Shown here one piece after another: positions 26,741 to 42,069 of a stretch of 64,000 bases of DNA. The translations under genes were made by a program, and so were the position numbers. This stretch comes from Candidatus Bathyarchaeota archaeon (GTDB taxonomy: Archaea > Thermoproteota > Bathyarchaeia > Bathyarchaeales > Bathycorpusculaceae). A model generated the notes under the pieces. It worked only from the letters and a program-made list of their open reading frames with translations, was not told where the DNA came from and ran no database searches. The stretch spans positions 64,001 through 128,000 of the forward strand of contig CAVZJV010000005.1 in NCBI GenBank assembly GCA_963775685.1, in the 5' to 3' direction. How positions within the stretch are numbered: position 1 is the first letter of the stretch; each line of letters starts with the position of its first letter.

Positions 26741-27754
26741 CGGCTCGTACCAGCATCTGTTAGCTCAATAAATGCATCCTCCAATGTGGGCTCTTCCTGG
26801 CGAAAGTTAACAAGCTTGATTTTCTCGCGGAAAAAGAAATCTAACACAATCGGCAACGAGTCCACGTTCTCCAAGCGCACCCGTAGGCGCGTCTGCCCAA
26901 GAACTGAATCCTGCACTTCTGAAGCTAAACCTGCAACCCCAGCCAAACCACGCAACGCATTCACCTGTGCTTGGGACATGTTTTTAACAACGAAATCTGC
27001 GACTTCGTTTTTCTTTGCCATGCCCTTTAATGCGTTAGGTGTGTCTAACGCAACGATTTTACCCTTGTTCATGATGCCAACTCTGTCGCACATCTGGGAA
27101 ACCTCCTCGATGTAATGCGTCGTGTAAAGTACTGTCTTTGCCGTGTTTTTTGCTAAGGTCATTTTTTATGAAATCGCGAATGTTCCTAGACGAAGTAACG
27201 TCTAGCCCTGTGGTTGGCTCATCCAGAAGAAGAATAGGCGGGTCTGCCAACAAAGCTCTTGCCAGGGCAAGCTTTCTTTTCATTCCACCTGAATACTTCT
27301 GGAAAAGCACATCTGCCTTCTCCTTCAAATCCACCAGCTCCAGAACCTCCATGATTCGCTTTTGTCTGGTACTTCGAGGAACGTTGTTTATAGCGGCAAA
27401 GAACTCCAAGTTGCGGTAACCGCTGAGCCTCCAGAAGAAACCGCGTTCTCCCACGCTGAAAAGAGTGCCTATAGACTGTTTTACTTTCATCTGCTGCTTG
27501 ACTACATCAAAGCCGTTTACTGTGGCGGTGCCTTGGTCTGGCGGCAGAAGTGTGCAGAGTATCTTGACAAGGGTTGTTTTACCTGCTCCGTTGGGTCCAA
27601 GGAGCCCGAAGAGTTCGCCTCTTTTAATTAGTAGGTTAAGGTTGTCGATAGCGTTGATAGATTGGGTTTTATTGTTGAACAGGCTGTTGTTTGGTGTTTT
27701 GAATTTGTATGCTTTTGTGAGGTTAATTGTTTGGATGGCAGTTTCACTTTGCAA
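26737..27754 (-). CDS. ABC exporter ATP-binding protein (+1 frameshift near 27138)
   Basis: GPNGAGKTT, YSGGMK and LLLDEPT. Removing one A restores GKTVLYTTHYIEE and the C-terminal EPTLEDAF. Confidence 0.88.
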
Positions 27755-28358
27755 CAGTAAATCACTTTGTGAATTTGTTTACAAAAAATTTCTAGTAACT
27801 CTTTAGCGTTAACGCGGCAATTAAGTATTTCTGCTAAGCATAGCTAAATTGGGAGAGGAAATTACCTATTCAGTAGAAAATTGGGAAAATAATAAAGGAG
27901 AGTTATTTGAGCTTCTCAAAAGAATTAACTAACCTAATTAACAAGAAATTTTCTTGTTTTCTTTTTTTTGGATTAATAATTATTTTGTCGTAGTACCGTC
28001 AAGTCAAATTCCTCAGTTACTGCAGGAAAATTTGTCGCCATTTATTGTGAACCTAAACCTTAAACCGTATTCAACTTTTTGCTTTAACCAATTTACCCCG
28101 CGCTTGAATAATTTCTTTTTCACTTGAAAACCAGTCTGTACCTTCTTGCAGATCGTGACAGAAACTCTAATGCTCCTATACCCCCTAAACCTTAACATAG
28201 AACTATAAACGGGACGCAAACAACACTTTTGACTATACATATAATTATTTATTTTGCAAATCATCTGAAACCCCCTCAAGTATTATTGTGGTTGCTTGAT
28301 CCCACACACATATTTTTTTATCCTTTACGCATAATAGTAATTTGGTTATTCACAATTG

Positions 28359-28511
28359 GTGATTGATTTTCAAGGTCTTGCGTTAATTATCAGTTGTCCA
28401 AACTGTGGAAAGAATATAGATAGACCTGATAAGAAAATAGAGAACACTCACTTCTGCTTAGCATCTTACATTTGCCCAGAATGCGGCAACCATTTTAAAA
28501 AATCAGACTAA
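28359..28511 (+). CDS. Small zinc-ribbon protein (50 aa)
   Basis: Manual translation contains CPNCG...CPECG. Confidence 0.55.
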   Translation: MIDFQGLALIISCPNCGKNIDRPDKKIENTHFCLASYICPECGNHFKKSD

Positions 28512-28807
28512 CAGTTTCTAGCAATCAATTAACCAAATCATATATCCCGATTCTAAGTTGTTGCTTCAATCTGAGACAACATCATTTTATATCATTTAGA
28601 CTCGTAACGAGTACTAAGAACAAATAAGTTAATACACCCTCGTTATGCGGGTCTGGCTGCTAACACGAGATAAAGTGTCTCCCCTCTTGACTTTTGCACT
28701 TTATCGATGTTGGCACGTGGCTTGGTTCGCTTAACCCTCCCTTTTTGCCCCTAACAAAGCGAAAGTGGGAAGAAGCTTTTTTAAACTTACAAGTCAGTTT
28801 AGAAGCT

Positions 28808-29329
28808 ATGTCGCTAAGAGCCCTTGCAAACACATTTCGTAGCAGACGATTTTGGGTTTGGCAGATAGGAGGCGCTTTCATTTATGCCATACCAGCGACG
28901 ATTCGGCTTGCTACCGGCAACGTCCACCTACCAATCTTAAGCGCATTTATGCCGCCATGGACAACCCCTTTTGTGCCCCGCAACATCGTTGAAAAAGTTT
29001 TGGTTAATGCTTTTTTCCCTGGAGGCGCCGGAGCGATTGCAGGAGAGGTCTTTTACACAAACAAAAACCAGAATCTTAGTAGAAAAAAGAAGTATCTGGC
29101 GCGTCTTGGCGGCGCGTGGGTTCAAACCGCATTATGGTCACTGTTCCAATTCGTTGGTTACATACAAAATATAAATGGTTCCTATGGTGGCAACCTCTTT
29201 GAATCCACATATGTTTTTCCACTTAACTTCACTTTGGCATCACTCGCCATTTTTACCCCCGATGTTGTGGGCTTCCTAAAAAGCAAACTTCTCAACACTT
29301 ATCAAAAACTACACCACAAAAAAAGTTAA
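28808..29329 (+). CDS. Hypothetical membrane protein
   Basis: Hydrophobic ORF. ATG at 28808 is the likely start. Confidence 0.65.
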   Translation: MSLRALANTFRSRRFWVWQIGGAFIYAIPATIRLATGNVHLPILSAFMPPWTTPFVPRNIVEKVLVNAFFPGGAGAIAGEVFYTNKNQNLSRKKKYLARLGGAWVQTALWSLFQFVGYIQNINGSYGGNLFESTYVFPLNFTLASLAIFTPDVVGFLKSKLLNTYQKLHHKKS

Positions 29330-29356
29330 TATTACTTTACCCATTAGAATCAAAGC

Positions 29357-29836
29357 ATGTCTTTTCATGTTAGACGCAAAGAACGAGAAATCACCGATGA
29401 CAAAGAGATGCAACAGATTTTGAAGAAAACAAAATACGTCACCATTGCCCTCTGCATGAACAACGAGCCATATCTGGTTGCACTAAATCACGGCTACGAC
29501 CAAGATAAAAACTGTCTCTATTTCCACTGTGCACCTGAAGGCAAAAAACTCATTTACGCACAGGCAAACCCAAATGTTTGGGGACAAGCAGTTCTGAATT
29601 TTGGCGTTACCGATGAGTGTGATTATGCCTACACTTCGGTGCATTTCCAAGGCACAATAAGCCTAATTTCTGATTCAGCAGAAAAACGACATGCCCTTGA
29701 AGTTATAGTGAGACAAGTCACCCTAAATCCTGAGTCAAAGCTTGCAAAGATCAAACCTGAAAAAATAGATAAGACCACAATGTTCAAAATAGAAATCACT
29801 TACATCAGCGGCAAGAAGCGTCAAGCTACGCCATAA
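29357..29836 (+). CDS. Pyridoxamine 5'-phosphate oxidase-like (NimA-type) flavin-binding protein
   Basis: RRKEREI, PYLV.LN, LYFHCA.EGKK, Y.SV..QG and I.GK motifs. Confidence 0.88.
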   Translation: MSFHVRRKEREITDDKEMQQILKKTKYVTIALCMNNEPYLVALNHGYDQDKNCLYFHCAPEGKKLIYAQANPNVWGQAVLNFGVTDECDYAYTSVHFQGTISLISDSAEKRHALEVIVRQVTLNPESKLAKIKPEKIDKTTMFKIEITYISGKKRQATP

Positions 29837-29849
29837 AACCAGCCTAACT

Positions 29850-29875
29850 ATACATGGAAGACCCTATTAAATCGC
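29850..29875 (+). repeat. Left terminal inverted repeat
   Basis: ATACATGGAAGACCCTATTAAATCGC matches the reverse complement of 39402..39427 at 22 of 26 positions. Confidence 0.75.
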
Positions 29876-29986
29876 CTAATTTATAGAGGTTTGTAGATAT
29901 TGCGATTAAATCGCATTTCGGTTTTTTGGTTGTTTTTTGGGTCATTTTTTCACACACTCAATTTTTTAATCTGTTGTTTAAAAAAA

Positions 29987-31060
29987 CTATTCGGGAAAGA
30001 GAATATCTTCACTGTCTAAACTCATTAATCCGTCTGAGTCGTTAAGGTCTCTCTCTTCTTTTTGGTCTTCGTTGTTCATTTCGTCTAAGCCTTGAGAAAT
30101 GCGTCTTTCGTCTCTCTGGGTTTGTGCTTTTGTTCGCTGTTTGTTTAGCCAGTCGTTTATTTTCTCTGAGAGGGTTTTCTTTTTTGGCAAACTTGAGAGC
30201 CATTTCTGTTTTAAAGTTTCGTTGATTATAAACGGTTTTCCATTGCCTTGGCTGAATGTTGGAGACAAAAACGTTTTTCCATCATAAAACCAAGTTTGTG
30301 GTTTCATTTCTGCAAAACTGAGACCTTGAGATTTTTCTATTTTTCTAAGAAATGGCGTTATGTCTTCATTGCTTAATTTACCAATTACGCTTAACTGTTT
30401 GCTTCTAATCGTTTTTGAGAAGTCATTTAAACGCTGGCTTGCAGTGAAGAAACTCTCTTTTTGGTTTCGTGCTTCATTGAAAACACTAAGGAAGGTCTCC
30501 GTTTCCTTGCTGGCTGTGGTGCGGTTTGTAAATATCCCTTGAGCCTCTTCTAAAATATAGGCTATGGCTTGTTTTGGTTCGTGGCTCTCTGAGGTTGTCT
30601 TTTCTACTCTCTGCTTTTGGTCTAAGTAGTTAACCACGGAACGAACAAAAAACGCTTTTTTGCTTGGTTGTCGGGTCTTGAATCTAAACAGTAAATCTTT
30701 TTCAGTATCTAAAGCCATTCTTAAGAGGTTAGCGTTTCTTAGTGTGTACTTTTCGAAGGCTTGAGAATTTCGTCTTTCACTCTCTAAAATGTCCCTTTCC
30801 GAGACGTTATAAACTGGAATTCGAGACGCTTTATAAATCCAAGTTTCGGAACTGTCAAAAGCTAAGACCCTTATGTTTTCTTGTTTTTGCAGTGCTTGAG
30901 CTATAGAGAACAAAAGAAATGTCTTTCCGTGGCTCTTGTTTGCTACGATATGAGACCCACCACACTTTAAGCCTTCAAAAAGCATAGTTTCAAACGTGTT
31001 TTCCATATGTTGTCTTATGTCGGCTTGCTTTAGCTCTGTGTTTTGTTTTTCGTTTGACAT
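29987..31060 (-). CDS. HerA/FtsK/VirB4-superfamily P-loop ATPase
   Basis: Walker A variant ANKSHGKT, 'AFDSS', Walker B YILEEAQ, and EARN...FFTASQR. ATG at 31060 is the likely start. Confidence 0.75.
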   Translation of the reverse strand: MSNEKQNTELKQADIRQHMENTFETMLFEGLKCGGSHIVANKSHGKTFLLFSIAQALQKQENIRVLAFDSSETWIYKASRIPVYNVSERDILESERRNSQAFEKYTLRNANLLRMALDTEKDLLFRFKTRQPSKKAFFVRSVVNYLDQKQRVEKTTSESHEPKQAIAYILEEAQGIFTNRTTASKETETFLSVFNEARNQKESFFTASQRLNDFSKTIRSKQLSVIGKLSNEDITPFLRKIEKSQGLSFAEMKPQTWFYDGKTFLSPTFSQGNGKPFIINETLKQKWLSSLPKKKTLSEKINDWLNKQRTKAQTQRDERRISQGLDEMNNEDQKEERDLNDSDGLMSLDSEDILFPE

Positions 31061-31104
31061 AGATGTTTCAATCCGTGGGTTTAACCGTGAAAATCGAAGG
31101 TATA

Positions 31105-31320
31105 TATGCAGTATGGCAAAAAGACCATACTTTTTATAAAAAGTGACTGAAATGCGGCTCAAATTAGGCTTATTTTGGGTTGTCTTCGAATAGTTTTCGA
31201 CCAAGTCTAAGGCTTTTTTGCCGAAATAATCAGTTTTGAGCCTTATTTCAAGGGTTTATCATTCAAAAAACGGAGTAAATTTTTGGATTTTTGAAAATTC
31301 CCTTTTGCATACTATGCATA
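31105..31320. repeat. Long nested imperfect inverted repeat
   Basis: 31105-31123 pairs with 31302-31320, and 31148-31163 pairs with 31235-31250 (14/16). Confidence 0.6.
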
Positions 31321-31580
31321 GAAGGGTTTGGAAAGGTTCGACTCTGAGATTGTAATTCATTTTAAAACCACTAAAAAAAGTTGATAATCTGATGTGAAAA
31401 TCGAATCCCTTTGAGTTTGGTTTCTGAAATAATGTTCTAAGAGTCTCATAAGGGGATTTTAATTTAGCTACTTTTTGAAAACGTCTTTTTGGAAATGGCA
31501 AAAAAATTGAAAAATTCCCAGATGGGGGGGGTTATATCTGAAAGGCGTATTTTCTTTTTTCTGGCGTTACATTCTTTTGC

Positions 31581-31814
31581 CTATTTAGTGCGAAGTGTCA
31601 TACGTCTAAAGAGTAAGCCCATTTGCGAAACAACTTTCTCGTTAGCATAGTATTTTTGGAAGCATTGTTCACAAATAGCCTTCATTTTCTGTGAATCTGG
31701 AATAAACCCTTCAATGTTAGAGTAAACCGTTTCACCTTTTTCAATGGTTCGGTCACACTTACCGCATTTACCAGAGAACAACGCCTTTCCTTTTGTCCAA
31801 ACCATCTTTACCAC
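31581..31814 (-). CDS. Small zinc-finger protein
   Basis: CGKC...CEQC. Confidence 0.65.
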   Translation of the reverse strand: MVKMVWTKGKALFSGKCGKCDRTIEKGETVYSNIEGFIPDSQKMKAICEQCFQKYYANEKVVSQMGLLFRRMTLRTK

Positions 31815-31997
31815 CAGAAGTGATGATATTGGTTATGTTAGCTTTTATGTTTTTGCATCTCTCAGCTTTTTCTAAGTCCCATTTGGTTTCCATAATTTAA
31901 AGGAAACGTTGAAGGAAGATGAGGCGTTATAAGAAGCAAATAGGTAACCATTAAAATGATAAGTAAACAAACCCAAATTATAAAAGATTTTTTTCTA

Positions 31998-32714
31998 CTA
32001 AATTTCTTGTTCAGAAACGTCTTTTTGGAATAATTTTGAGCGAAGTTTGCATATTTCTTTCTCAATAGTAGCAAACTCTTCCAGCTCTTTCGAATACAAT
32101 TCTCCAACCCTTTGATAAAACCATTTGTAAAAATCTTTGATTAAACATTGATATTGATTTAATACAACCTTCAAGTCAACCTCTTGATTGACACGGATGT
32201 ACCTTTTAGAACCAGCACTCAATTTCTTTGAAGGTAACCTTTGCTTTTCCAACAGTATGCTTTGTTTAATTTGCTGCTCTTCTCTGGAAAAATGTGTTAA
32301 CAAGTAGGGAAATTCAATATGTTGGGTAATATTTCGCAAGTCTTTTATAAAAACGTAACAATCGTTAGGCTCTAAAGCGTTGACTCTTGCATCATATTCT
32401 TCTTTTAGTTTTGAGTATTTCTCACAAAATCTTGAATTATGTCTAATCAAACTGAAAGTACTGGAAAGATAATTATGCAGTAGTCTTGAAAGTTCTCTAA
32501 AAAAGAGAGTACGTTCTTTTCCACTATTCCACAATGCTGAGTTGCCTTCGTAATTTGCCATTGCTAAGGATAATTCTTGATAGTTTCTGTTTACTGCATA
32601 ATGAGTACTTTTAAATTGTCTAAGCATTATAACGATTTTTGTGCCTTCTAACGTTTCTTGCTTGTCAGTAAGTTCATTTAATCTTTCAACAATTTCAAAT
32701 TGTTCTTGACTCAT
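31998..32714 (-). CDS. HEPN-like helical protein (candidate RNase/toxin)
   Basis: All-alpha character with an Rx4H motif (LRNITQH) and upstream 'LHNYLSS'. Confidence 0.55.
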   Translation of the reverse strand: MSQEQFEIVERLNELTDKQETLEGTKIVIMLRQFKSTHYAVNRNYQELSLAMANYEGNSALWNSGKERTLFFRELSRLLHNYLSSTFSLIRHNSRFCEKYSKLKEEYDARVNALEPNDCYVFIKDLRNITQHIEFPYLLTHFSREEQQIKQSILLEKQRLPSKKLSAGSKRYIRVNQEVDLKVVLNQYQCLIKDFYKWFYQRVGELYSKELEEFATIEKEICKLRSKLFQKDVSEQEI

Positions 32715-32848
32715 TATTTTTCAACATATCCTTAGTCTGTCTGACATTTAGGAACGCGCTAATATTCAGTTTTAAGTTTTTTGGCTATTTCTACGCTGTT
32801 ACAAATTTAAGACTTATTACGTTTTCAAAAAACAAAATGAGGAAAGGG

Positions 32849-33565
32849 CTATTTCTTGGCTTTTCTCCTTTTGATAAATACAATTGACAATAATGATGCA
32901 ACTACGAGTATTGGCAGAATTAACCACGATGGAAACTCTGGAACTGTAGGTGTAGGAGTTGGGTTCTGGGAAGAATAAGGCGTAGCTGTCGGGTCTTGTG
33001 TTGGTGTTGCTGTCGGAGTTGCTGTAGGTGTTGGGGCAACTGTTGATGTTGGACTTGGACTTGGAGTGGTGTTATCCACGGAAGGTGACACATAAAGCAC
33101 CCAATCATCAACGTTGGTAGTGAGGAAATAAATCTTGTAGCCTTGGCTACCTATCTGTGAATTCTTTAGACTGTAAGGATAAGGGTTGATTAAATCAATG
33201 CCAGTTGTGCCTGCGTTGGCGTAGCCATCATTGCCGCTGTCGCCTACCATAACATTGGTAGCTACATCATAAATACTGTATTTTACCCATGTATATTCAT
33301 AGTAACCGCTGGTGTAGTTGCAGTCCCATTGCATCCACCACATACCATTAGGGTTGGTCGCCGTCTTAGGTATGAAAACTGTAGGCACAGCATAATCTGT
33401 ATTTTTGAAAGTATAGGTCGGCGAGGTCAGCGGGGAATCGGGTTGTGGATTTATCCATGGAAGAAGAGGAAAAGCATCTGCAGGTGCAATCATACAAACC
33501 GCAAAAAAGACTAATACGACAGTTACCAAACTACAAATAACCAATACTTTGTTTGCTAAACGCAT
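32849..33565 (-). CDS. Cell-surface protein with PEF-CTERM-type sorting signal
   Basis: N-terminal signal peptide, Pro/Thr linker, VPEF, TM helix and basic tail KRRKAKK. Confidence 0.85.
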   Translation of the reverse strand: MRLANKVLVICSLVTVVLVFFAVCMIAPADAFPLLPWINPQPDSPLTSPTYTFKNTDYAVPTVFIPKTATNPNGMWWMQWDCNYTSGYYEYTWVKYSIYDVATNVMVGDSGNDGYANAGTTGIDLINPYPYSLKNSQIGSQGYKIYFLTTNVDDWVLYVSPSVDNTTPSPSPTSTVAPTPTATPTATPTQDPTATPYSSQNPTPTPTVPEFPSWLILPILVVASLLSIVFIKRRKAKK

Positions 33566-33594
33566 AACTACCGCTTCTCCCCAGTTGTAGTGTT

Positions 33595-33804
33595 ATGTTT
33601 TTAGCTATTAATAATTTTAGTAATAGTACTCACAATATACTCTACGATTCATTCTCAAATAGTACTATGAACTTACCGAAAGAAATGAAGGAAACTTTAG
33701 GCATAACTGAGATAAAAGGCAAAATATTGTTTATCTTAGAAGGCTCTCAAGTCATAGTGCAAAAAGCCTATTTTTATCTGTCAATTTTGACCATTAAAAA
33801 ATGA
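33595..33804 (+). CDS. Possible AbrB/SpoVT-like small protein or remnant
   Basis: 'LPKEMKETLGI...GKILFILEGSQVIVQK' resembles a swapped-hairpin domain. The N-terminus is atypical. Confidence 0.35.
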   Translation: MFLAINNFSNSTHNILYDSFSNSTMNLPKEMKETLGITEIKGKILFILEGSQVIVQKAYFYLSILTIKK

Positions 33805-33848
33805 CAGAGAGATATCGGTTTTCTCCATAAAAAAATATATATATGCAC

Positions 33849-34406
33849 TTATCCAGCGTACAATTCCCTTAACCTTTTGCTCTCTTCACACTTAACAATC
33901 TTGGAATATTCAACAATAAACTCTCTAATTTCACTATAATTAAGAGAGGTTACACGTTCCTTATTGTTAATATCACTATTATGAGTAGTAGTATATTGAG
34001 AGGTTAATAGTAATTGTATTAATTGTTCTAATTGTGAAAAACCGCAAATTTGAATTTTGTCGGCTTGAGCAAGGTCTATAACGCTGTTATAGTTTTGTGG
34101 TCTATTGGTTAATAATACGTGGATGTGAAATTTATCGGCTATGTGGCAATCTTGGAATCTGGGTTTAACGCTGTCTAAATACCATTGCGTTCTTATGGGA
34201 TAATCTGCTTCGCAATGTTTGTTTTCCACGTAAATTTTATATGAGCCAACAGTAAAAATAAAATCTACTCCGACCCCTCTTTCCCTTTTCCATAGGTGTG
34301 GAATCCAAGAATTGTGATAAGTTAAATATTTGCTTAGTTTTTTGGCTTGAGTTTTTTTGAAAATAGAGTACTCTTGGTTTATGCCTATCGTGTCGAATTT
34401 GCTCAA
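33849..34406 (-). CDS. PD-(D/E)xK nuclease-like protein
   Basis: GVDF...IYVENK matches the D...ExK catalytic pattern. Confidence 0.6.
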   Translation of the reverse strand: MSKFDTIGINQEYSIFKKTQAKKLSKYLTYHNSWIPHLWKRERGVGVDFIFTVGSYKIYVENKHCEADYPIRTQWYLDSVKPRFQDCHIADKFHIHVLLTNRPQNYNSVIDLAQADKIQICGFSQLEQLIQLLLTSQYTTTHNSDINNKERVTSLNYSEIREFIVEYSKIVKCEESKRLRELYAG

Positions 34407-34453
34407 GTATTGGCTTGTTATCGTTTTTTAGCACTCTCCCTTTTTAGGGTGTC

Positions 34454-34617
34454 ACACTACTATATAAACTTTACGTTTGTAAATGTTTTGGTTGTCATAT
34501 GTAAAGGTTCAGCATCCATCCACTTTTTAATCAAGTGATTAAAAAACGAACCCTAAAAGCCTTTACATATGTAAAAGGTTTAGTTTACATAAAACCATAA
34601 CATTTATATATTAGTGT
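34454..34617. promoter_or_regulatory. Long palindromic divergent control region
   Basis: Nested arms of 14/15, 13/14, 12/12 and 10/10 bp, with TATA-like TTTATATA in both orientations between divergent genes. Confidence 0.65.
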
Positions 34618-34646
34618 ATGCATTATAGTGCATAGAGGTTTACACT

Positions 34647-34991
34647 ATGTCAAGTAAAACTAATCAAACAGTTTATGTTCGTAAAGGCTCTCAAGCAGTT
34701 TTGAAACAATTAAGTGAAAAGACCCGATTAAGTCAGAGTGAAATTTTGGCTAATTGGCTCTCTGCTATAGAGGTAGTTATGAACCGTTTTTCAGACTTGT
34801 CATATGACCGTTTAAGTTTTGCTTCATATCCGACAGAGAGAAAAGAAGTCAAAACGCTGTTAGCACCTATAATTAGTGGTGAAGTTCAATTCCAGCTTGA
34901 TAACACAAGCGAATCTGTAAATGAGGCGAGAGCAGACCACGCAGTGACTAAAGACCTTGAAAGAATAGCTCAAAAGGCAAAGGTGAACTAA
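34647..34991 (+). CDS. Putative ribbon-helix-helix DNA-binding protein
   Basis: N-terminal QTVYV strand followed by helices LKQLSEKTRLSQSEIL. Confidence 0.55.
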   Translation: MSSKTNQTVYVRKGSQAVLKQLSEKTRLSQSEILANWLSAIEVVMNRFSDLSYDRLSFASYPTERKEVKTLLAPIISGEVQFQLDNTSESVNEARADHAVTKDLERIAQKAKVN

Positions 34992-34992
34992 A

Positions 34993-35667
34993 ATGACCCC
35001 TGAAGAAATTGCAGAACAATGGAAAAAAGAAGGCGAAGCACGAATTAACGGTCAACAGCGAACCGAAGTTATAAAAATTAACGTTGATAATCAAGCCATT
35101 ACCGATACAATCAACGAAAACAAGAAACTTAAAGCAGAAATTGAAGAGGGAAAGGATGCAACAGACTTATTTACTGAATTAAAAGAAAAAGCAAGCGTAG
35201 AATTAACGTCTCTCGGTGTGAATACTGAGGTCTCAGATTTAAAGAGCAAAAACGATTTAGATAGAGCAATAACGACAATTCAGAAATTAAAGGCTGGAAA
35301 AGGCTCAAATTCTAATTATCCAAGCATCCCAAGTGGAACAGTGCCGTTATCAAGCCAAACGCCTGCTAAAAAGTCTGGATATTCAAACGTTGAACAAATG
35401 GTGGATGACGCAAACCAGAACAAGGAAATAAGAAACGCATTGCTCTCTAAATGCTTAAAAGGCGTAAAAGAAGGGCATTTAATTCTCAAAAGCTATGAGT
35501 TGCCACTACCAGAAACTCAAACCTCAGATTTAATTGAGAATGGGAAATTATCAAAAAAACCTGACGTTCTCGGAATTCAACATATGCACCGAACTAAGAA
35601 ACTAAGGGAACGTGCTGAAAAAGGCGACTCTCAAGCAATTGACCTTTTGAACAGTGGAAATTATTAA
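34993..35667 (+). CDS. Hypothetical coiled-coil protein (element)
   Basis: 224 aa, preceded by an AGGTGA Shine-Dalgarno-like motif and tightly coupled to its neighbours. Confidence 0.7.
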   Translation: MTPEEIAEQWKKEGEARINGQQRTEVIKINVDNQAITDTINENKKLKAEIEEGKDATDLFTELKEKASVELTSLGVNTEVSDLKSKNDLDRAITTIQKLKAGKGSNSNYPSIPSGTVPLSSQTPAKKSGYSNVEQMVDDANQNKEIRNALLSKCLKGVKEGHLILKSYELPLPETQTSDLIENGKLSKKPDVLGIQHMHRTKKLRERAEKGDSQAIDLLNSGNY

Positions 35668-35670
35668 AAG

Positions 35671-36162
35671 GTGTTATGTATGGGTAAAAGACAAAAAATA
35701 GCATTTAACGAAAATAGCGAAGTGGTTTTTCTAACCATTGACACAAACACAAACGAAACCATTGAGACGAAAACCCCTTTAGAAATGGGTCTCTGGAAAA
35801 GCAGAGAATTCTATTACATTTTTAAGAGATGTGCCTTAAATCCAGTTTCACTTCAAAACATAGAAGGATTTTTCATTCAAAAAGTGCTTTTTCGTTGTCC
35901 TAATAAAGACGGTCTCGAATTCCATTACTTTTACTTCGAAAAAGGGTTTAGTTTGCCTTGTTGTAGAATCTTAGACCCACGGTTAAACAATTTGTGCGGT
36001 TTAACTTTCCAAGTTTCGACAAATGACCCAACATTCACTAAAAATATAGGTAAACCTAAACGTTTGTCTAATACAATCGTTAAAAAAGCGATAATTGACA
36101 AAAAATATAATGGCATTGATGTTTTAGGATGCTATAGTGAAGACGGCTCGGAGAGGGTTTAA
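35671..36162 (+). CDS. Hypothetical protein (element)
   Basis: 163-aa operonic ORF. Confidence 0.65.
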   Translation: MLCMGKRQKIAFNENSEVVFLTIDTNTNETIETKTPLEMGLWKSREFYYIFKRCALNPVSLQNIEGFFIQKVLFRCPNKDGLEFHYFYFEKGFSLPCCRILDPRLNNLCGLTFQVSTNDPTFTKNIGKPKRLSNTIVKKAIIDKKYNGIDVLGCYSEDGSERV

Positions 36163-36271
36163 AGTGACTGTGTTTAGCTGTGTCTCTTTGGTTTCTTTGA
36201 GTCATATCGGGTTTCACCTATTTCACTACACGGCTAAGCACTTCACAATTTAAAATTAAGGTGATTAGTCT

Positions 36272-36640
36272 ATGCCTTTAAAAAATTGCAAAAAGTGCGG
36301 AAAGCCATTTCGGGCTAATACTGGTCAAACGCATTGCCATAATCCTTGTTACCCAGAGAGTGAAAAAACTTTCAATCATTGCAGTGAGTGCGGTAGAAAA
36401 CTAATTAATGGTTTTTGGTCTCGAAAACCTGAAAGTGAAAGGATATGCAGTTTTTGCGATGACCGACATAAAAAATTAAGGGTAACTCAAAAAGAAGACG
36501 CACGGAAAAAAACGCTTAGAAAATGCTCAGAATGTGGTGAATATTCGTATTTAGTGCTTAAAGAATCGCTTTGCCGTGCTTGTTTCAGAAAAAAAGAGAA
36601 TCCCAGAATTATATCAATAAAAGAGGTTAAAAATTTATGA
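36272..36640 (+). CDS. Multi-zinc-finger protein
   Basis: Five CxxC pairs plus one CxxxC, preceded by AGGTGA. Confidence 0.75.
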   Translation: MPLKNCKKCGKPFRANTGQTHCHNPCYPESEKTFNHCSECGRKLINGFWSRKPESERICSFCDDRHKKLRVTQKEDARKKTLRKCSECGEYSYLVLKESLCRACFRKKENPRIISIKEVKNL

Positions 36641-36762
36641 GTGAAATTCAAAAAGAAAAATGCGTTTGTGGTTACTCTGAGACCACTTTAAAACTAACTG
36701 AATGCACTCAATTAGAAGTTTGCAGTTATTGCGGCTCTATTAGAAGGAAATTTCAGTTTTGA
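36637..36762 (+). CDS. Small zinc-ribbon protein (41 aa)
   Basis: ATGA overlap with the upstream gene. MSEIQKEKCVCG...CSYCG. Confidence 0.55.
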   Translation: MSEIQKEKCVCGYSETTLKLTECTQLEVCSYCGSIRRKFQF

Positions 36763-36773
36763 GAGTGGTAAAT

Positions 36774-36923
36774 ATGGAAGACATAAACAATTTAGAACCT
36801 AAAAAACAGAAAAAAGCTAAAACGTTTGAAGAGTGGGAAGCATCTCACAACTTTAAAGACGTTGACCCCAAATTAGTTTCTAAGGCAATTTTAGCTGAAT
36901 ATGATAATCGAGAGCAGTCTTGA
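36774..36923 (+). CDS. Small hypothetical protein (49 aa)
   Basis: Manual ORF MEDINNLEPKK..., operonic spacing. Confidence 0.45.
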   Translation: MEDINNLEPKKQKKAKTFEEWEASHNFKDVDPKLVSKAILAEYDNREQS

Positions 36924-36983
36924 AAAATTTCACGTATATTTTGACGTAGGGCTTTATAAGTGACTGTTAAGAGTCAAGATATT

Positions 36984-37052
36984 TAGTGGTTGACTAATCG
37001 CCTCAAGGTTTCTGTAAAACTTTAGTCAATTGTGAAGGTTAGTCAACCACTA
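36984..37052. repeat. Perfect 14-bp inverted repeat
   Basis: TAGTGGTTGACTAA (36984-36997) and TTAGTCAACCACTA (37039-37052), with an extra TTAGTCAA at 37022. Confidence 0.7.
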
Positions 37053-37078
37053 TATTATTGAATTAAACAAAAAGTGAG

Positions 37079-37303
37079 GTGAAAACTATGCAAAAAATAC
37101 AAAGTTTCGAATTTGTCTCCGTTAATCACACAAGAAAAACCGTGACCTTAGTTCTCACTCACATCTATAACCCTCAATGCAAAGGTTGCAGAGAGAATTT
37201 AGTTGAAGCAAAACAGATTGCGAAAGATTACGGTTATACATTCATTCTGAAAGAGCCAAAAGAAGATTTGCCTTTTCTCAGAAGTGATTTCAATGAACGT
37301 TAA
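37079..37303 (+). CDS. Small hypothetical protein
   Basis: 74 aa containing CxxC. GAGGTGA precedes the ATG at 37088. Confidence 0.55.
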   Translation: MKTMQKIQSFEFVSVNHTRKTVTLVLTHIYNPQCKGCRENLVEAKQIAKDYGYTFILKEPKEDLPFLRSDFNER

Positions 37304-37515
37304 CTCTTAGTTTTTTAACATCCACTCTAATTTTTTTTGCCAAACTAAAACCCCATTTCATTAAGTATTAATCCATAAACACATATTGTGAAATTAAACC
37401 CAAAATAATCCCTATTACGATATTAGACCTAATTATGTACCTATGGACTACTGAACTCTCGAATTCAAGTCGAATCTAATTGGCGGGGGGGTATTTAGCC
37501 TTTTTTCAACCAATA

Positions 37516-37778
37516 GACCCCAAATTACAAATACTTTTCTCTTGAAGTTTAAATATTTTACTTCGAAACCTTTGTTTAATGTCCCTCTACTAAGAGAGAC
37601 CCTCATTAAATAGTAGTTTTCTACAGTTTATGACACGCGGAATATTATTTAACATCCATCATAAGAGACCATTAACAGAGACATACACGGCTCTTTTTAT
37701 GGTAACAATTAGAAACTTAACGGTCTTAGACTGTAGTTAATAGGGGTTTAATGAATGGTCTCGGCTCTGTTTGGGGTC
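37516..37778. repeat. Long nested imperfect inverted repeat (structured non-coding region)
   Basis: Four nested stems downstream of the recombinase gene. Confidence 0.6.
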
Positions 37779-37860
37779 AACCTTAGCCAAAAAAATTAAT
37801 TTAACATCCACTTGAGAAACTTGGACAAATAAGAAGAGAAAAGAGAGCCTAAAAAAAGGC

Positions 37861-39102
37861 TTAATCAATCTTCACTTTTTCGTTTTGCTGTTCTTTCAGT
37901 GCTTCTAAGACTATTCTCTTTATCGTGTTTGGGTCTGTTGCTGTGTTGTTTCTTATGAAGTCTTCAAGTTTAGCGATTCTTTCCAAGTCGGCTTTTCTCT
38001 CGGCTTTTCGTGTTTCTATTTCGACTTGCTGAGAGCCTATCAGGTTGTTTAGGTTTTCCTTGATTTTTACTAAGTCTTCTCTGCTCTGCATTCCGTTGAT
38101 TGAGACGAATTCAAAAGCCTTAGTGTAAGCGTCTTTTATGGTTTGTTCGTCATAGCCATAGTGACCCCTTGAGCCTAAACGCTGGTGACCCATCATAAGG
38201 TCTTTAACTTCGCTTTTTATGTCGGCTCTGAGCAATGCCGAATTATAGAGACTTCTTAGATGCTTAGTTTTGAATTCTTTTGCTCTCTCTGAGCCTAAAG
38301 CCTTCTCTGCTAAGTTTTTCATTGATTCGTGAATTCGTCTAACCTCAATAGGTGCGTCAATTTCTGTTTTCTCTTTTGTCTCTGGGTCTATGTCTTCAAT
38401 TTTTGCGTTTTTGGTTTGAGAAGTGAAGATAAAGCCTTTTTTCGGATTGCCTTTTTCGGCTAATAGGTCTCTTAAATCGTGTACTGCTTCGAAACTTAAA
38501 CAAGTGGCTTGTATTTCGCCAGTTTTTTCTCTGGGTTTCTCTAAAAAGTAGTGTGTGCTTATTGGGGTTTCATAGAATCCTTTCAAGTCTTCAATGCGAA
38601 ACTCTGTTACGTCAACCTCAGAAAAACCCGACTGACTGAGAGCCAACAATAAGCAACGGTCTCTTAATGAGCCGTGGCTATACATTGCTTTAACATCATC
38701 CAGCTTTAGAGTCAATTTGTTTTTTATTCTGGTTGACTGAGTGCTGTTCCAGTCTCCACGTCTTAAATTTAGTTTTCCAGTGGTACGACCAAAAAAAGAC
38801 GCTATTGTTCTTAGCTCTGATTTTATGCTTAGTGGTGCTAAAGTGGTTTCTGTCTCTCGTTTCTGTTTGTATTCTCTGAATTTCGACTCAAAAAAAGACC
38901 GTGCGGCTAAGTCTTTTGAATTCAAGTCTTCAATGCGTCTTTTTATTTGCTCTGTTGGGGTCATTTCGATAAAGTCATTCCAGCTTAAAATCCCTCTTAA
39001 ATAATTGCCTTTTGACTTTTCAGTGAGACCGTTAAGCCACTGGTTAACGTATTGGTCTTTTAGCAGTTCTGCAATTTTTGCCTTTATTTCAGTGTTGACC
39101 AT
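37861..39102 (-). CDS. Tyrosine recombinase/integrase, atypical active-site motifs
   Basis: LRDRCLLLALSQSGFS, REKTG, KHLRS, LMMGH, HY, with an N-terminal core-binding-like domain and a coiled-coil tail. Confidence 0.9.
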   Translation of the reverse strand: MVNTEIKAKIAELLKDQYVNQWLNGLTEKSKGNYLRGILSWNDFIEMTPTEQIKRRIEDLNSKDLAARSFFESKFREYKQKRETETTLAPLSIKSELRTIASFFGRTTGKLNLRRGDWNSTQSTRIKNKLTLKLDDVKAMYSHGSLRDRCLLLALSQSGFSEVDVTEFRIEDLKGFYETPISTHYFLEKPREKTGEIQATCLSFEAVHDLRDLLAEKGNPKKGFIFTSQTKNAKIEDIDPETKEKTEIDAPIEVRRIHESMKNLAEKALGSERAKEFKTKHLRSLYNSALLRADIKSEVKDLMMGHQRLGSRGHYGYDEQTIKDAYTKAFEFVSINGMQSREDLVKIKENLNNLIGSQQVEIETRKAERKADLERIAKLEDFIRNNTATDPNTIKRIVLEALKEQQNEKVKID

Positions 39103-39267
39103 CTAAGCCACTCCGAGAGCCTTTAGAAATTTGGCTTTATTGAATTTCTTATTATCTATTTCGAAATGTAGCATTAAATCTTTTGTGAATTCTTGCTTAG
39201 TGTTTGCAGTGGTTGACTTTAGGAATTCGGCAAAAAAGCAATAGTGTCTTTTTGTGAAATAGGTCAT
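39103..39267 (-). CDS. Small protein directly upstream of the integrase (54 aa)
   Basis: MTYFTKRHY...FEIDNKKFNKAKFLKALGVA*. Its stop abuts the integrase ATG, and both genes are preceded by GGAGTGGCTTA. Confidence 0.7.
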   Translation of the reverse strand: MTYFTKRHYCFFAEFLKSTTANTKQEFTKDLMLHFEIDNKKFNKAKFLKALGVA

Positions 39268-39401
39268 TTTAAGCCACTCCATAAGCCTTTAAAACTGCTT
39301 TTCTTGTTTTGGGGTCTAATTGGTAACGGCTCAATTTAACTCTAAAATCTATAGAATTAGAGAGACGTTGATTTAATAGCAAAAAACTATTAAGAGTTTT
39401 A

Positions 39402-39427
39402 GCGATTAAATAGGCTGTTCCATATAT
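39402..39427 (-). repeat. Right terminal inverted repeat
   Basis: GCGATTAAATAGGCTGTTCCATATAT, the inverted partner of 29850..29875. Confidence 0.75.
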
Positions 39428-39443
39428 GAAAGAAAAAAAGGGG

Positions 39444-39857
39444 TTATCCTTGCGTTTTCAGTTTTTTCCAGTCAAGATACGAAATAACAACCAATATTAC
39501 TGTCCAGATTGCCCAGAAGGCGAAGGCGGGACTGATAAAATACAGTGGCAAAGCTATTACGCGGTTAGCAATTGAAGCAGCTATTACCAGCAGAGGAGCC
39601 CAAGCAAGTTTCTTTAGCAGCCCAAACAAAGCCACACCATACACGGCTGAAACTAATAGCAGAATCACAGTTCCCGCAATCAACGCACTATAATTGCCTA
39701 TAACAGTTGCGATATAGCCTGTGTTTAGTGAAGAGTCTCGAGAAGCAGCGTTAACCCACCAGAATGCTACGTTGCCGATGTCACCGATTATGTTGATGGC
39801 AACAAAAATGATCAAGACTGTGTGCAATTTATCTAATTTTTCAATCTTTGTTTTCAT
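39444..39857 (-). CDS. Hypothetical membrane protein
   Basis: About 4 TM helices. Confidence 0.7.
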   Translation of the reverse strand: MKTKIEKLDKLHTVLIIFVAINIIGDIGNVAFWWVNAASRDSSLNTGYIATVIGNYSALIAGTVILLLVSAVYGVALFGLLKKLAWAPLLVIAASIANRVIALPLYFISPAFAFWAIWTVILVVISYLDWKKLKTQG

Positions 39858-39904
39858 AGATTACCGTTTCGCCCTCTTCTATATTTAAAACTTGCTAGCA
39901 GATG

Positions 39905-41758
39905 CTAACTTCCCATCATGGAGTAGTCCACTTGGTAGATGCGCAGGTTGCTATCAGAGTAGACAGTTGTCAAAAACCCCACAGAGTCAAAATGCGATAT
40001 ACAATTTGATGTGTAGTAGCTGATTTCTTCGTTACCGACATACACATAAGACACGTTGAATTCTCGAATTACCGACGCTAATTCTGTTATAGTACCATTG
40101 TAAGCTGAGTCGATTTCTTTTTCGCGCTGCCACACTTGATCCAAAGGTATTCCATGACCATATGGCCAATAAATATACGACGACACTCGCACCCGACCCG
40201 CAATCATAGTTGGAGGCTCATGAATACCATAATAAGTCAAAAACACCGAGTTCTGCGGCGTGTTGTCCCGAACCCACAAACCAAGTTGGTATTCACTCCA
40301 ACTAACACCTGTGTAGTCGGTCCCAACATTGTATACTATAACGCTCGATGTTGTGATGACTGAAAACAAAACCAACGCCACCACCAAAATACGCCTGGTT
40401 TTAGCCAACATGATGCCGCTAAGCACTGCGATGAGTACCCAGGCAAACATGAAGAACTTGTACATGTCCCAGCTCCAAGGCGTCAACAAAAGCATATTTG
40501 GAATTAAGAAAAGTATCAACAGAGTGATTTTGAGGTATTGGTGTCCGCGTTTGAAGAAAGAGATGATTGCCAAGGCAAAGGGGATTCCTAGATTTAGTGG
40601 GTAAAAAACAAAGGGATTATTATGAACATAGGTGGCAAAAAAGTCCAGGTTAAAACTAATCGAGAACGATGACCCGCTAAAAAGGATGAAAGGCAAGGCA
40701 AAGATAGTGGGTAACAAAAAATACAGGTAACTAAGTTTGATTTTGCGTAGGTTAATCAGCAGACAAATGGCGTAGACGACGTAGCAACAGAAGAACGCAA
40801 CATTGTGGAATTCATACGCTAAACCTGTCAAGACTCCTGCGAGAATTAAGCGATTTCTGTCATCCATATCCCGTAGCAAAGCCAGAACCAAAGCAAACGC
40901 TGGCAACCCAATAAGCAAGGGGCGCTGCTGCAAGAGATTATCAAACATTGAGGGCAACCCAAAGGTTTGGCCAAACTGATAGATGTAATTCTGCGTTGGA
41001 GTAAACGTGCCATTGAGAAGGGCTGAGAACAAACCTAAATAGCTCAATCCCCAACCGAAAACGCTGATAACTGTAGCAACAACTGCCGCCCGCCGACCAT
41101 AAGGTCGCGCCAACGCGTAAACCGCAAAACCAAAAAACAGAATGAACAAAGCATTAAGGACAGGCATCAAGGTAGGCAGGTATCCGTAGACTTTTTCAAG
41201 GATAGCCGTATGGAAGTCGACAAAGTAGTGGTAGCTAAGAGGTGTACCCAAATAGTTTGGGTTTTGAGGTGGGAAGTTGCCGTTGTTTAAGCTTTCGATA
41301 ATTTCGTAATGGAAAGGTGTGTCCTGCCAGTTAGAGCCCGTGACGACTATGCCGTACTGGTCGCCCCGCCAAACACTGAGACCCAACAAGGCAATTGAAA
41401 CAAGAAATATAACTGCGAAGAGAAGCAAGCTGGTTTTCTTAATCTGTCTCACTTTAAAAAACATCTGGGGTTTTAGTGGTTCGCCCTTCTTGTAAACTAC
41501 CCAAGCATACAACGTTGTTAAAGCCAGAAAACAAACGAGTATAGTTTGGCTTGAGTAACCTGCTGCCAACGACGCGTAATAGATGAGTTGGACGGACACT
41601 AAAACACTAAAGAGAGGTATAAAAGCCCATGTTTCATAGGATTTCAAGCGGAAAAAACGGATACCAATTAGACCTGGAACCAGAAAAGTGAAGAGAAAGG
41701 CGGCCACAAGACCAACGATGAATGAACCAAACCCCGCAGAAGTCAACACTAAAAACAC
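39905..41758 (-). CDS. GT-C-like polytopic membrane glycosyltransferase
   Basis: 'WQDTPFH...PPQNP....LSYHYF' loop, more than 10 TM helices, and C-terminal 'WVRDNTP' and 'VSYVYVG'. Confidence 0.65.
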   Translation of the reverse strand: MFLVLTSAGFGSFIVGLVAAFLFTFLVPGLIGIRFFRLKSYETWAFIPLFSVLVSVQLIYYASLAAGYSSQTILVCFLALTTLYAWVVYKKGEPLKPQMFFKVRQIKKTSLLLFAVIFLVSIALLGLSVWRGDQYGIVVTGSNWQDTPFHYEIIESLNNGNFPPQNPNYLGTPLSYHYFVDFHTAILEKVYGYLPTLMPVLNALFILFFGFAVYALARPYGRRAAVVATVISVFGWGLSYLGLFSALLNGTFTPTQNYIYQFGQTFGLPSMFDNLLQQRPLLIGLPAFALVLALLRDMDDRNRLILAGVLTGLAYEFHNVAFFCCYVVYAICLLINLRKIKLSYLYFLLPTIFALPFILFSGSSFSISFNLDFFATYVHNNPFVFYPLNLGIPFALAIISFFKRGHQYLKITLLILFLIPNMLLLTPWSWDMYKFFMFAWVLIAVLSGIMLAKTRRILVVALVLFSVITTSSVIVYNVGTDYTGVSWSEYQLGLWVRDNTPQNSVFLTYYGIHEPPTMIAGRVRVSSYIYWPYGHGIPLDQVWQREKEIDSAYNGTITELASVIREFNVSYVYVGNEEISYYTSNCISHFDSVGFLTTVYSDSNLRIYQVDYSMMGS

Positions 41759-41991
41759 TAAAACAAGCCAATATTTTTTCAGAAACGCTGAGTAAGGTGC
41801 TTTCGCAGTGATTTTCCTGTTCCCCTTCGCCTCGAATTGGTAACAGTTAATTGTTTACTGAAATGTATTAAGATTGCCGCAGAATTATTTTTCGCTCTGG
41901 CTTCTTTATCGTCTTAGAGCTACTTGTTCATTGCAAAATCCGAGAAAGCTTAATTAACTGAATTATCGTGTATGTGTTGCGGCGCTTAGTT

Positions 41992-42069
41992 GCCCAGGTA
42001 GTATAGTTAGGTCTAGTATATGCGGCTGTCGCCCGCAGGACCCGGGTCCAAATCCCGGCCTGGGCGCCA
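41992..42069 (+). tRNA. tRNA-Asp(GTC)
   Basis: Acceptor stem GCCCAGG/CCTGGGC, anticodon arm TGCGG-CTGTCGC-CCGCA, encoded CCA. The T-loop reads TCCAAAT. Confidence 0.9.

Follow-up and report, generated by a model that had tools for sequence, protein, structure and literature searches.

A 9.6-kb mobile element of a soil archaeon with a divergent tyrosine recombinase and imperfect inverted termini

The locus, its termini and the empty site

The window analysed here is a stretch of 64,000 nucleotides from the 3.06-Mb genome of a soil archaeon, Candidatus Bathyarchaeota. It contains a block of about 9.58 kb (29849-39428) that lies between two convergent host genes and encodes a tyrosine recombinase close to its right end. 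The block is a mobile element, and it belongs to a family whose hallmarks are a single, divergent tyrosine recombinase and a pair of imperfect inverted termini, each about 26 bp long. The borders of the element and the features next to them are:

29357..29836, + strand: left host gene, PNPOx-like (Pfam Pyridox_ox_2, E 5.4e-18); stops 13 nt before the element; orthologs in relatives are 71-81% identical
29849..39428, no strand assigned: whole element; gone from between the two host genes in 6/9 same-genus loci
29850..29875, + strand: left terminus, far from the integrase gene; reads ATACATGGAAGACCCTATTAAATCGC inward; 22/26 inverted match; matrix score 15.8, genome rank 7
29902..29914, no strand assigned: additional, palindromic copy of the terminal box (GCGATTAAATCGC), located 27 nt inward of the left terminus
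37861..39102, - strand: tyrosine recombinase (integrase), 413 aa, intact; Pfam Phage_integrase 22.3 bits (cut-off 27.1), PHROG 216 integrase 8.9e-7
39103..39282, - strand: open reading frame (ORF) of 59 aa between the right terminus and the integrase gene; tblastn identity of 42-55% beside integrase homologs (L047, L151, L169)
39402..39427, - strand: right terminus, beside the integrase gene; reads ATATATGGAACAGCCTATTTAATCGC inward; 22/26 inverted match; matrix score 24.4, genome rank 1
39444..39857, - strand: right host gene, 137-aa membrane protein; stops 15-16 nt from the element; orthologs in six relatives are 56-65% identical

The segment 29850-29875 and the reverse complement of 39402-39427 agree at 22 of 26 positions, and the match can be extended to 24/30 (29850-29879 and 39398-39427). 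An agreement of 22/26 was reached by none of 2000 dinucleotide-preserving shuffles of the 100-nt zones at the two junctions and by one of 2000 shuffles of wider zones (221 x 371 nt), and a chance origin of the inverted repeat is thereby ruled out. The pair is absent from the 25 longest of 100 inverted pairs reported by a general repeat finder, and therefore stands out by its position and significance, not by its length. The left terminus closes with the box ATTAAATCGC. In the window, the four copies of the motif GCGATTWAAT are confined to the ends of the element, whereas 0.43 are expected and none of 100 shuffles reaches four; the distribution of this terminal box suggests that it is a protein-binding site.

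Direct repeats between the end zones are absent at the levels of 12/12, 13/14, 14/16 and 17/20. Within about 30 nt of the junctions, there is no exact direct repeat of 6 nt or more, apart from the self-complementary ATTAAAT inside the inverted repeat, and the junctions have no target-site duplication. The only tRNA genes in the window start at 41992, 61708 and 61884, and the closest of them, tRNA-Asp (41992-42069), is 2.5 kb away from the element. The original prediction, made from the sequence alone, had described termini that match at 22/26, a position between convergent genes, and the lack of a tRNA target, direct attachment (att) repeat and target duplication, and all of these were found again. 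It had also placed a change of composition at both termini, which is clear on the right side and modest on the left. The guanine-cytosine (GC) content is 0.31-0.40 in 19 of the 20 intervals of 500 nt between 29500 and 39499 (the exception, 33000-33499, has 0.45) and 0.41-0.46 in the right flank (39500-41999), whereas the left flank is mixed, with 0.35-0.37 at 27500-28499 and 0.41-0.47 elsewhere between 26000 and 29499.

The DNA of the left flank was compared with 41 related genomes and matched 20 of them, and nine same-genus loci of other genomes were fetched. In six of the nine (L002-L007), the PNPOx-like gene and the gene of the 137-aa protein are directly convergent and 40-80 nt apart. The best-aligning of these empty sites, L003, aligns with the window on both sides of the element. 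It reads ...GGTCTAAC, which ends in CTAAC, followed immediately by AAAGAAAAAAAG. At the same place, the window reads ...GCCTAAC (up to 29848), a single T, the repeat-bounded block ATACATGG...CCATATAT, a single G and AAAGAAAAAAAG (39429-39440). The alignment identifies 29849-39428 as the inserted sequence, and the block thus starts and stops with the inverted repeat, which lies one base inside each end. The joint is within 1-2 nt of the repeat tips, in agreement with the borders given in the original prediction, and the comparison reveals no direct repeat at the insertion. The T-run beside the right end (39429-39440; an A-run on the + strand) is host sequence, as AAAGAAAAAAAG is present in the empty site of L003.

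Inverted recombination sites together with a tyrosine recombinase are the usual make-up of invertible segments, and the recombinase could in principle flip the 9.6-kb block as a phase-variation switch or shufflon. However, the whole block is missing at the orthologous site in six relatives, its GC content is lower than that of the right flank, neither terminus splits a promoter or gene, and members of the family occur at unrelated loci with unrelated cargo. An invertible segment is therefore hardly credible.

The recombinase family and its targets

The recombinase is encoded in one unbroken frame of 413 aa that is colinear with its homologs. It is not split, as had been predicted, unlike the SSV-type integrases. 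The single sequence has no match among the sequences of the PDB, and a profile of 68 family members matches archaeal XerA (4a8e, 1.2e-11; 5hxy, 4.4e-5). An AlphaFold2 model of the recombinase has a predicted local distance difference test score (pLDDT) of 88.4. In Foldseek searches, it matched, with a probability of 1.00, XerA (4a8e, 7.5e-8), IntI (2a3v), lambda Int and Cre, all of which score better than the integrase of Tn1549, which was also matched (6emy, 2.9e-4; 6en2, 5.4e-4). XerA is the best match of the family both in sequence and in fold. The N-terminal half of the model, including residues 1-120, is all helical and does not contain a small arm-binding domain, and a long helix (342-406) is added at the C-terminus. 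According to the model, the protein is a divergent, simple XerA/Cre-like tyrosine recombinase composed of a helical core-binding domain and a catalytic domain. The residues Lys193, Arg283, His306 and Tyr315 occupy their expected positions in the HMMER alignment to XerA and belong to the invariant columns of family alignments with 18 and 68 members. At the position of the first histidine, these alignments show a nearly invariant Lys280, and an invariant, family-specific arginine, Arg191, might substitute for the first catalytic arginine.

The 59-aa ORF upstream of the integrase gene has no family match in an NCBIfam scan; as a guess, it could encode an accessory or directionality factor. Another contig of the same genome (L187, contig C14 702704-703785) carries a decayed integrase copy of the same family, which is 34-36% identical and contains in-frame stops.

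Homologs of the integrase are present in 17/101 genomes of the same genus (E<=1e-10), in 24/332 genomes of the same taxonomic family (E<=1e-40), and in 5/401 genomes of a phylum-wide sample, where all five belong to the same order. They were also detected on 128 metagenome contigs, 80 of which were kept, and the integrase family comprises at least 250 protein clusters. The source names of two homologs point to Bathyarchaeia. The family thus occurs in an order of soil and sediment archaea, probably Bathyarchaeia.

The homologs share a terminus of the ATATATGGA type, located about 90 nt upstream of the integrase gene. Read inward, ATATATGGA(A/G) is followed in the terminus by a variable stretch and then by a box of the kind TATTWAATCGC. 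Two genomes, G020 with a 70%-identical integrase and G064 with a broken copy, have identical termini that match the right terminus of the window at 21/26, and the flanks of their loci (L041, L042) part exactly between tt and ATATAT. A weight matrix was constructed from 32 termini of other loci, with the window excluded. When both strands of the 3.06-Mb genome were searched with it, the right terminus of the element ranked first and the left terminus seventh. Among the metagenome loci outside the matrix, 26/51 have a terminus that scores at least 14 on the inward strand, up to 500 nt upstream of the gene, and 0/51 on the opposite strand. The median distance between terminus and gene is 90 nt (36/62 loci that scored). 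Members of the subfamily to which the window belongs (L107, L109, L110) are just below the threshold, with termini recognised by eye. Sixteen further elements, which span 2.7-10.1 kb and occupy unrelated intergenic sites, have both inverted termini. The expectation attached to the original prediction, that homologs of the recombinase carry such termini at unrelated loci, is borne out by these elements.

DDE transposons, casposons and linear genomes with terminal proteins typically have inverted repeats at their ends, and the recombinase might accordingly be cargo or a dimer resolvase of an element that moves by a DDE transposase, by Cas1, or as a linear protein-primed virus or plasmid. Against this, ten ORFs scanned each in Pfam, PHROGs and NCBIfam gave no transposase, Cas1 or polymerase match, a target-site duplication is absent, and the distance between terminus and recombinase gene is fixed (the median of 90 nt) across elements that have no other gene in common. 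Such a mechanism is very improbable.

Several other terminus-like sequences were noticed. At 36769-36797 (+ strand), the sequence AAATATGGAAGACATAAACAATTTAGAAC agrees with the left tip at 11 of its first 13 nt; it is located 1.1 kb downstream of the integrase gene, in an orientation that suits a sub-element of 2.66 kb. A third, internal terminus at this place (about 36769, AAATATGGAAGAC...), which would make the element composite, was not counted, as its matrix score is below 11. Tip-like sequences are found 1.4-1.7 kb from the proximal terminus in L115, L117, L127 and L143, with 14-18 of 24 positions matching, and might mark integrase-only units. In L123 (1-4514), the far terminus occurs twice (outer bases 3375 and 4419), and the second copy has a flank that is reverse-complementary to that of the near terminus; this may reflect an artefact of assembly or a rearrangement of the element. 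Extra copies or solo termini were not detected in the genome of the window, where 26-mer matches of at least 19/26 are about as frequent as by chance (estimated at about nine per query) and where the best matrix matches besides the two termini have no integrase nearby. One such 19/26 match to the left terminus, at 13150-13175 (- strand) with the C-rich flank ccgccccctgccctc preceding ATTAATGGAATAACC..., is at about the estimated chance level and has no integrase nearby.

The comparison of loci indicates that the elements have moved. One near-identical element end is found in five different flanks (L118, L119, L128, L129, L143), and two different elements are found in one flank (L119, L127). 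Genome G065 contains two copies at different loci, whose similarity is confined to the integrase (91.7% over 1614 nt) and the far terminus. In 37/80 metagenome loci, a contig end is located 52-436 nt from the start of the integrase match, a pattern to be expected when assemblies are interrupted at a boundary that is polymorphic or repeated. ORFs are present on both sides of 11 insertions, all of which are intergenic, five between convergent, three between divergent and three between tandem genes. No tRNA is predicted beside the integrase in 26 genome loci; in four of 50 metagenome loci, a tRNA is located 73-135 nt from the terminus, and a tRNA overlaps a terminus in 0/76 loci. One unusual tyrosine recombinase seems to move the family between many intergenic sites.

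The flanks have a composition of their own. When read inward, 52/54 end in two pyrimidines, mostly CT, whereas 2000 random draws gave 15 on average and at most 27. Position -1 is T in 45/54 flanks and a purine in none, and the last 10 nt contain 7.4 pyrimidines on average, compared to 5.0. A C-run is present on exactly one flank in 13/16 pairs, and in 10 of these it is on the integrase side; the opposite flank is often GTTCAAYCT-like. The flanks of the window fit this pattern: the integrase side has CCCC TTTTTTTCTTTC, which is host sequence, and the opposite side has GCCTAACT. To judge from these sequences, the target looks like a loose, oriented junction of a pyrimidine run with a purine run, with no fixed att site. 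The recurrent flank GGTTCAATCT was considered as the T-arm of a tRNA and rejected, as ARAGORN finds no tRNA there.

Some sites may be used repeatedly. In another species of the genus (G013:C1:106114-107798), a distant integrase (25% identical) is located directly upstream of the ortholog of the PNPOx-like gene, and mobile elements may land repeatedly in the neighbourhood of this gene. In G040, a member of the family adjoins the gene of seryl-tRNA synthetase, and none of its ORFs adjoins that gene in 11 relatives. In L190, L194 and L197 (G719:C120, G726:C12 and G720:C4; relatives of G040), the contig ends 59-121 nt past the seryl-tRNA synthetase gene, on the side where G040 bears the element, and this side of the gene may be an insertion hot spot. 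A search for the empty sites of the two G065 copies did not find the far-side genes within 1.5 kb in 11 and 11 relatives.

Mode of movement

The family apparently represents a widespread, undescribed variant of tyrosine-recombinase transposons. Its recombinase probably joins the ends of the element to non-homologous targets, as in Tn916. In the proposed mechanism, the two-domain, Cre/XerA-like recombinase with a C-terminal coiled coil and no arm-binding domain would bind the inner boxes of both termini as core-type sites, pair the two ends, and introduce staggered cuts at or beside the AT-rich tip. A circle would be released, with a near-palindromic, lox/dif-like junction ...TTCC-ATATAT/ATATAT-GGAA.... 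The circle would recombine with intergenic targets, pyrimidine run followed by purine run, of little or no shared sequence, as is the case for Tn916/Tn1549 and CTnDOT, and would leave no recognisable direct repeat.

Inverted arms just inside attL and attR are a necessary feature of elements with simple-core tyrosine recombinases, as established from lambda, Cre and Xer. The element could therefore be a classical site-specific integrative plasmid or provirus, in which the arms C and C' of the attP core correspond to the inverted repeats and ATAYAT is the overlap shared with attB. A 6-bp direct repeat at both ends would then be hidden by palindromy, and the many sites would share a degenerate attB. 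In direct orientation, ATACAT (29850-29855) and ATATAT (39422-39427) agree at 5/6 positions, and an imperfect direct match, ATA[C/T]ATG[G/A]AAGA, links 29850-29862 to 39422-39434 (10/13). The flanks are non-random and asymmetric, as an attB would give, and the accessible text of a thaumarchaeal survey describes att sites as short as 8 bp (PMC6563490). However, ATAYAT is present between the two host genes in 0/6 empty sites, which are those of other species. One element end is found in five flanks that have only a YCT-like ending in common, elements lie in either orientation relative to the C-run flank (10 in one, 3 in the other), and arms of 26 bp are long for core sites. A classical integrative element, the main rival, is considered less likely.

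Several observations weigh against transposon-like joining of the ends to non-homologous targets. The position of the first catalytic arginine is occupied by Ser161, which is invariant in both the 18- and the 68-sequence alignment, and with this canonical residue replaced, the activity of the recombinase is an assumption. The tip ATATAT is its own reverse complement, so that a Tn916-like reaction and a hidden 6-bp core are indistinguishable. The precision of the boundary is 1-2 nt at best, because the relatives with empty sites are other species and only about 72% identical. The one-sided C-run suggests a more specific, oriented target than the word transposon implies. An 18-nt motif, GGAAAAGACTATAGCCCC, is positioned 1-3 nt outside 6/40 proximal termini (L054, L126, L136, L146, L175, L178), compared to 0/16 distal flanks and 17/20000 random 40-mers, and holds a second TGGAAAAG-like half-site oriented as the tip. 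It was considered as a repeated host sequence and this was rejected, as the genome of the window has only one weak copy. The two G065 copies share 47 nt beyond the integrase-side terminus, and a tip-like CCTATAGGG is found about 30 nt inside the true end in L074, L080 and L081. The motif, the 47 shared nucleotides and the inner tips could represent favoured targets, traces of earlier insertions, or a continuation of the element past the repeat.

The search for excised forms points in the same direction. None of the 80 metagenome loci is a circular contig with terminal overlap, and the IMG/VR viral contigs contain no relative by protein or by alignment. The DNA was present in only four sequencing runs, soil metagenomes kept as contigs with 6-7% of the sampled words, and these were compared with 28700-40500. 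No read or contig contains a circle junction, a same-species empty site or a joint across 29849/39428; the contigs cover the element in pieces only, mainly 31900-33650. In one 249-nt contig (X3), the match begins at 29854, with about 30 unmatched letters ahead of it.

Backbone, related systems and significance

The rest of the element encodes the following products:

29987..31060, - strand: FtsK/HerA-superfamily P-loop ATPase; the listed ORF extends to 31204; weak match to Pfam AAA_14 (E 0.02)
31259..31501, - strand: 80-aa ORF, common backbone; 86% identical in the second element of the same genome
32849..33565, - strand: protein with Pro/Thr-rich linker and C-terminal anchor, secreted or anchored in the membrane, as read from its translation; weak PHROG 15511 (3.5e-5) and Heimdall-CTERM (E 0.079) matches
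33849..34406, - strand: 185-aa backbone protein; 89% identical in the second element, 26-36% in L047, L052, L114, L116 and L134
34647..34991, + strand: possible ribbon-helix-helix regulator (Pfam RHH_3, E 0.0062, below the cut-off)
36272..36640, + strand: Cys-rich zinc-ribbon protein of the backbone; 51% identical in the second element; weak zinc-ribbon matches

The ATPase probably starts at 31060, because its homologs align from about residue 49 of the listed ORF. It has no family match above threshold in Pfam or NCBIfam, and one of the 120 ATPase homologs listed carries PF01935. The AlphaFold2 model (pLDDT 85.6) was matched by Foldseek to the ATPase of haloarchaeal virus PH1 (1.5e-8), the packaging NTPase B204 of STIV2 (4kfr, 2e-7, template-modelling score to target 0.60) and HerA (4d2i, 1.1e-6). 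In the model, the ATPase has the fold of the A32/B204 packaging ATPases and HerA, which agrees with the HerA/FtsK-type ATPase of the original prediction. The GK46 residues of its Walker A motif are invariant. As in the window, L111, L116, L138 and L144 have a homolog of the ATPase 7.5-9 kb downstream of an integrase homolog, and a fifth ATPase homolog, in L141, is at a similar distance on the opposite strand. The 185-aa protein can be read as bearing a D...ExK nuclease-like motif. Rep, relaxase and capsid proteins, which had not been recognised in the original prediction, were likewise not detected by sequence profiles of Pfam, PHROGs and NCBIfam; the search by structure covered the integrase and the ATPase only.

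A second element of about 9.3 kb is present in the same genome, outside the window (L186:5400-14800, corresponding to contig C14 1357558-1366676, or about 1357400-1366800). Its ATPase is 58%, its 80-aa protein 86%, its 185-aa protein 89% and its zinc-ribbon protein 51% identical to those of the window, whereas the identity drops to only 25% for its integrase. A possible imperfect direct repeat in this second element (13/16), TA[G/A]GG[T/C]TTATGAATT, is found at L186 5435-5450 and 14756-14771. The common backbone combined with a different integrase indicates that backbone and integration module are separable. The 9.6-kb element of the window would accordingly consist of an integration module and a plasmid- or virus-like backbone that includes the packaging-type ATPase and the 80-aa, 185-aa and zinc-ribbon proteins.

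The small members of the family (2.7-4.5 kb) contain the recombinase and one or two further genes, and several of these encode N-terminal signal or membrane segments. Examples of ORFs with an N-terminal hydrophobic segment are L043:12383-12922, where a Pro/Thr-rich stretch follows, L044:5237-5779 and L054:1073-1909. The protein encoded at 32849-33565 of the window, also Pro/Thr-rich, resembles these ORFs. Surface proteins may be the usual cargo of the family.

The element resembles Tn916 and Tn1549 in having a tyrosine recombinase, imperfect inverted ends, no true direct repeat, and many targets. The inverted ends of Tn916 are presumably 26 bp long. Tn916 and Tn1549 use many AT-rich or pyrimidine/purine-type targets, and their strand exchange tolerates non-homologous coupling sequences. 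However, the recombinase of the element has an all-helical N-terminus that does not include an arm-binding domain, no Xis family match was obtained, no conjugation module was recognised, and the host is an archaeon. The likeness to Tn916 drawn in the original prediction therefore holds for the inverted ends, the missing direct repeat and the many targets, but not for the arm-binding domain and Xis: as the integrase does not possess a Tn916-type arm-binding domain, the parallel is one of behaviour, not of membership. Cre/loxP and XerA/dif are similar to the element in their simple two-domain enzymes, and the predicted circle junction also consists of two inverted binding elements around an AT-rich centre; dif has the arrangement 11-6-11, according to the available part of a review (PMC8371274). 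Unlike these systems, which recombine two identical sites, the element has a genomic target that is no copy of the site, arms of about 26 bp, and a replacement of the first catalytic Arg. It differs from casposons and DDE transposons in having no Cas1 or DDE family match and no target duplication.

Five groups of prokaryotic tyrosine-recombinase transposons, ICE/IMEs, SEs, GInts, RITs as well as Tn554, were distinguished in the accessible text of another review, and its Table 1 gives archaeal hosts for ICE/IMEs only (PMC10214605). The same text describes SE termini as inverted repeats of 13-19 bp and RIT termini as 34 bp, with a target preference and no classical long att repeat. In SE, GInt, RIT and Tn554, tyrosine recombinases are the sole strand-transfer enzymes, and two to four recombinase-related proteins are required (IntA/Tfp/IntB/Srap, GinA-D, RitA-C and TnpA-C, respectively; PMC10214605, in the part available). 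In contrast, the element described here holds one integrase gene, as do the small members, and some members have the 59-aa ORF in addition; the other tblastn matches in the genome are located on another contig.

The element has much in common with pNOB8- and SSV-type elements, thaumarchaeal integrated mobile genetic elements, and Yucahu-i, which are archaeal, encode a tyrosine recombinase, measure about 10 kb, are sometimes intergenic, and are plasmid- or virus-like. Many classical archaeal elements reside in tRNA genes, and the SSV-type integrase gene is split upon integration. The element differs from all of these in the absence of a direct repeat and a tRNA, its intact integrase gene, and its inverted ends. 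In the accessible parts of the sources, thaumarchaeal proviruses with a packaging ATPase and an integrase are described (PMC6563490), Yucahu-i of Asgard archaea has 10.9 kb and an 11-bp att motif (PMC11529989), and archaeal direct att repeats range from 8 to more than 100 bp (PMC8371274). An archaeal review and the thaumarchaeal survey treat att sites as direct repeats by definition (PMC8371274, PMC6563490), and the available text of the Bathyarchaeia virus survey (PMC10848311) and of the Asgard study (PMC11529989) mentions nothing like the element. A search of the full-text literature, available in part and with supplements outside its scope, found no archaeal tyrosine-recombinase element with inverted ends. 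The original prediction had suggested an undescribed family of archaeal tyrosine-recombinase transposons; the family is real, and no archaeal case was found in the literature searched.

As far as the available sections of the surveys indicate, archaeal integrated elements have been delimited almost wholly via direct att repeats and tRNA targets (PMC6563490, PMC8371274). Screens based on these features would miss members of a family that has inverted ends and no direct repeat, or would assign wrong boundaries to them. Within one order of soil and sediment archaea, the family is common (24/332 genomes and 128 metagenome contigs), and it breaks many assemblies at a terminus. It would bring homology-independent tyrosine-recombinase transposition, so far known from the bacterial Tn916/CTnDOT, SE, GInt, RIT and Tn554, to archaea, with one enzyme and an odd active site. 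A stronger and tentative proposal is that a single Cre-like recombinase that lacks the first catalytic Arg serves as a true transposase in Bathyarchaeia, excising cassettes of 2.7-10 kb with inverted repeats at their borders and inserting them, independently of homology and in either orientation, at intergenic junctions of a pyrimidine run with a purine run, and that it provides a virus- or plasmid-like backbone with an exchangeable integration module. If this single-enzyme transposase were true, the family would be the first of tyrosine-recombinase transposons in archaea and the simplest known. For archaeal genetics, a compact recombinase that has ends of 26 bp and makes loose demands on its target could be an interesting tool. 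The family illustrates how a virus- or plasmid-like backbone can exchange its integration module.

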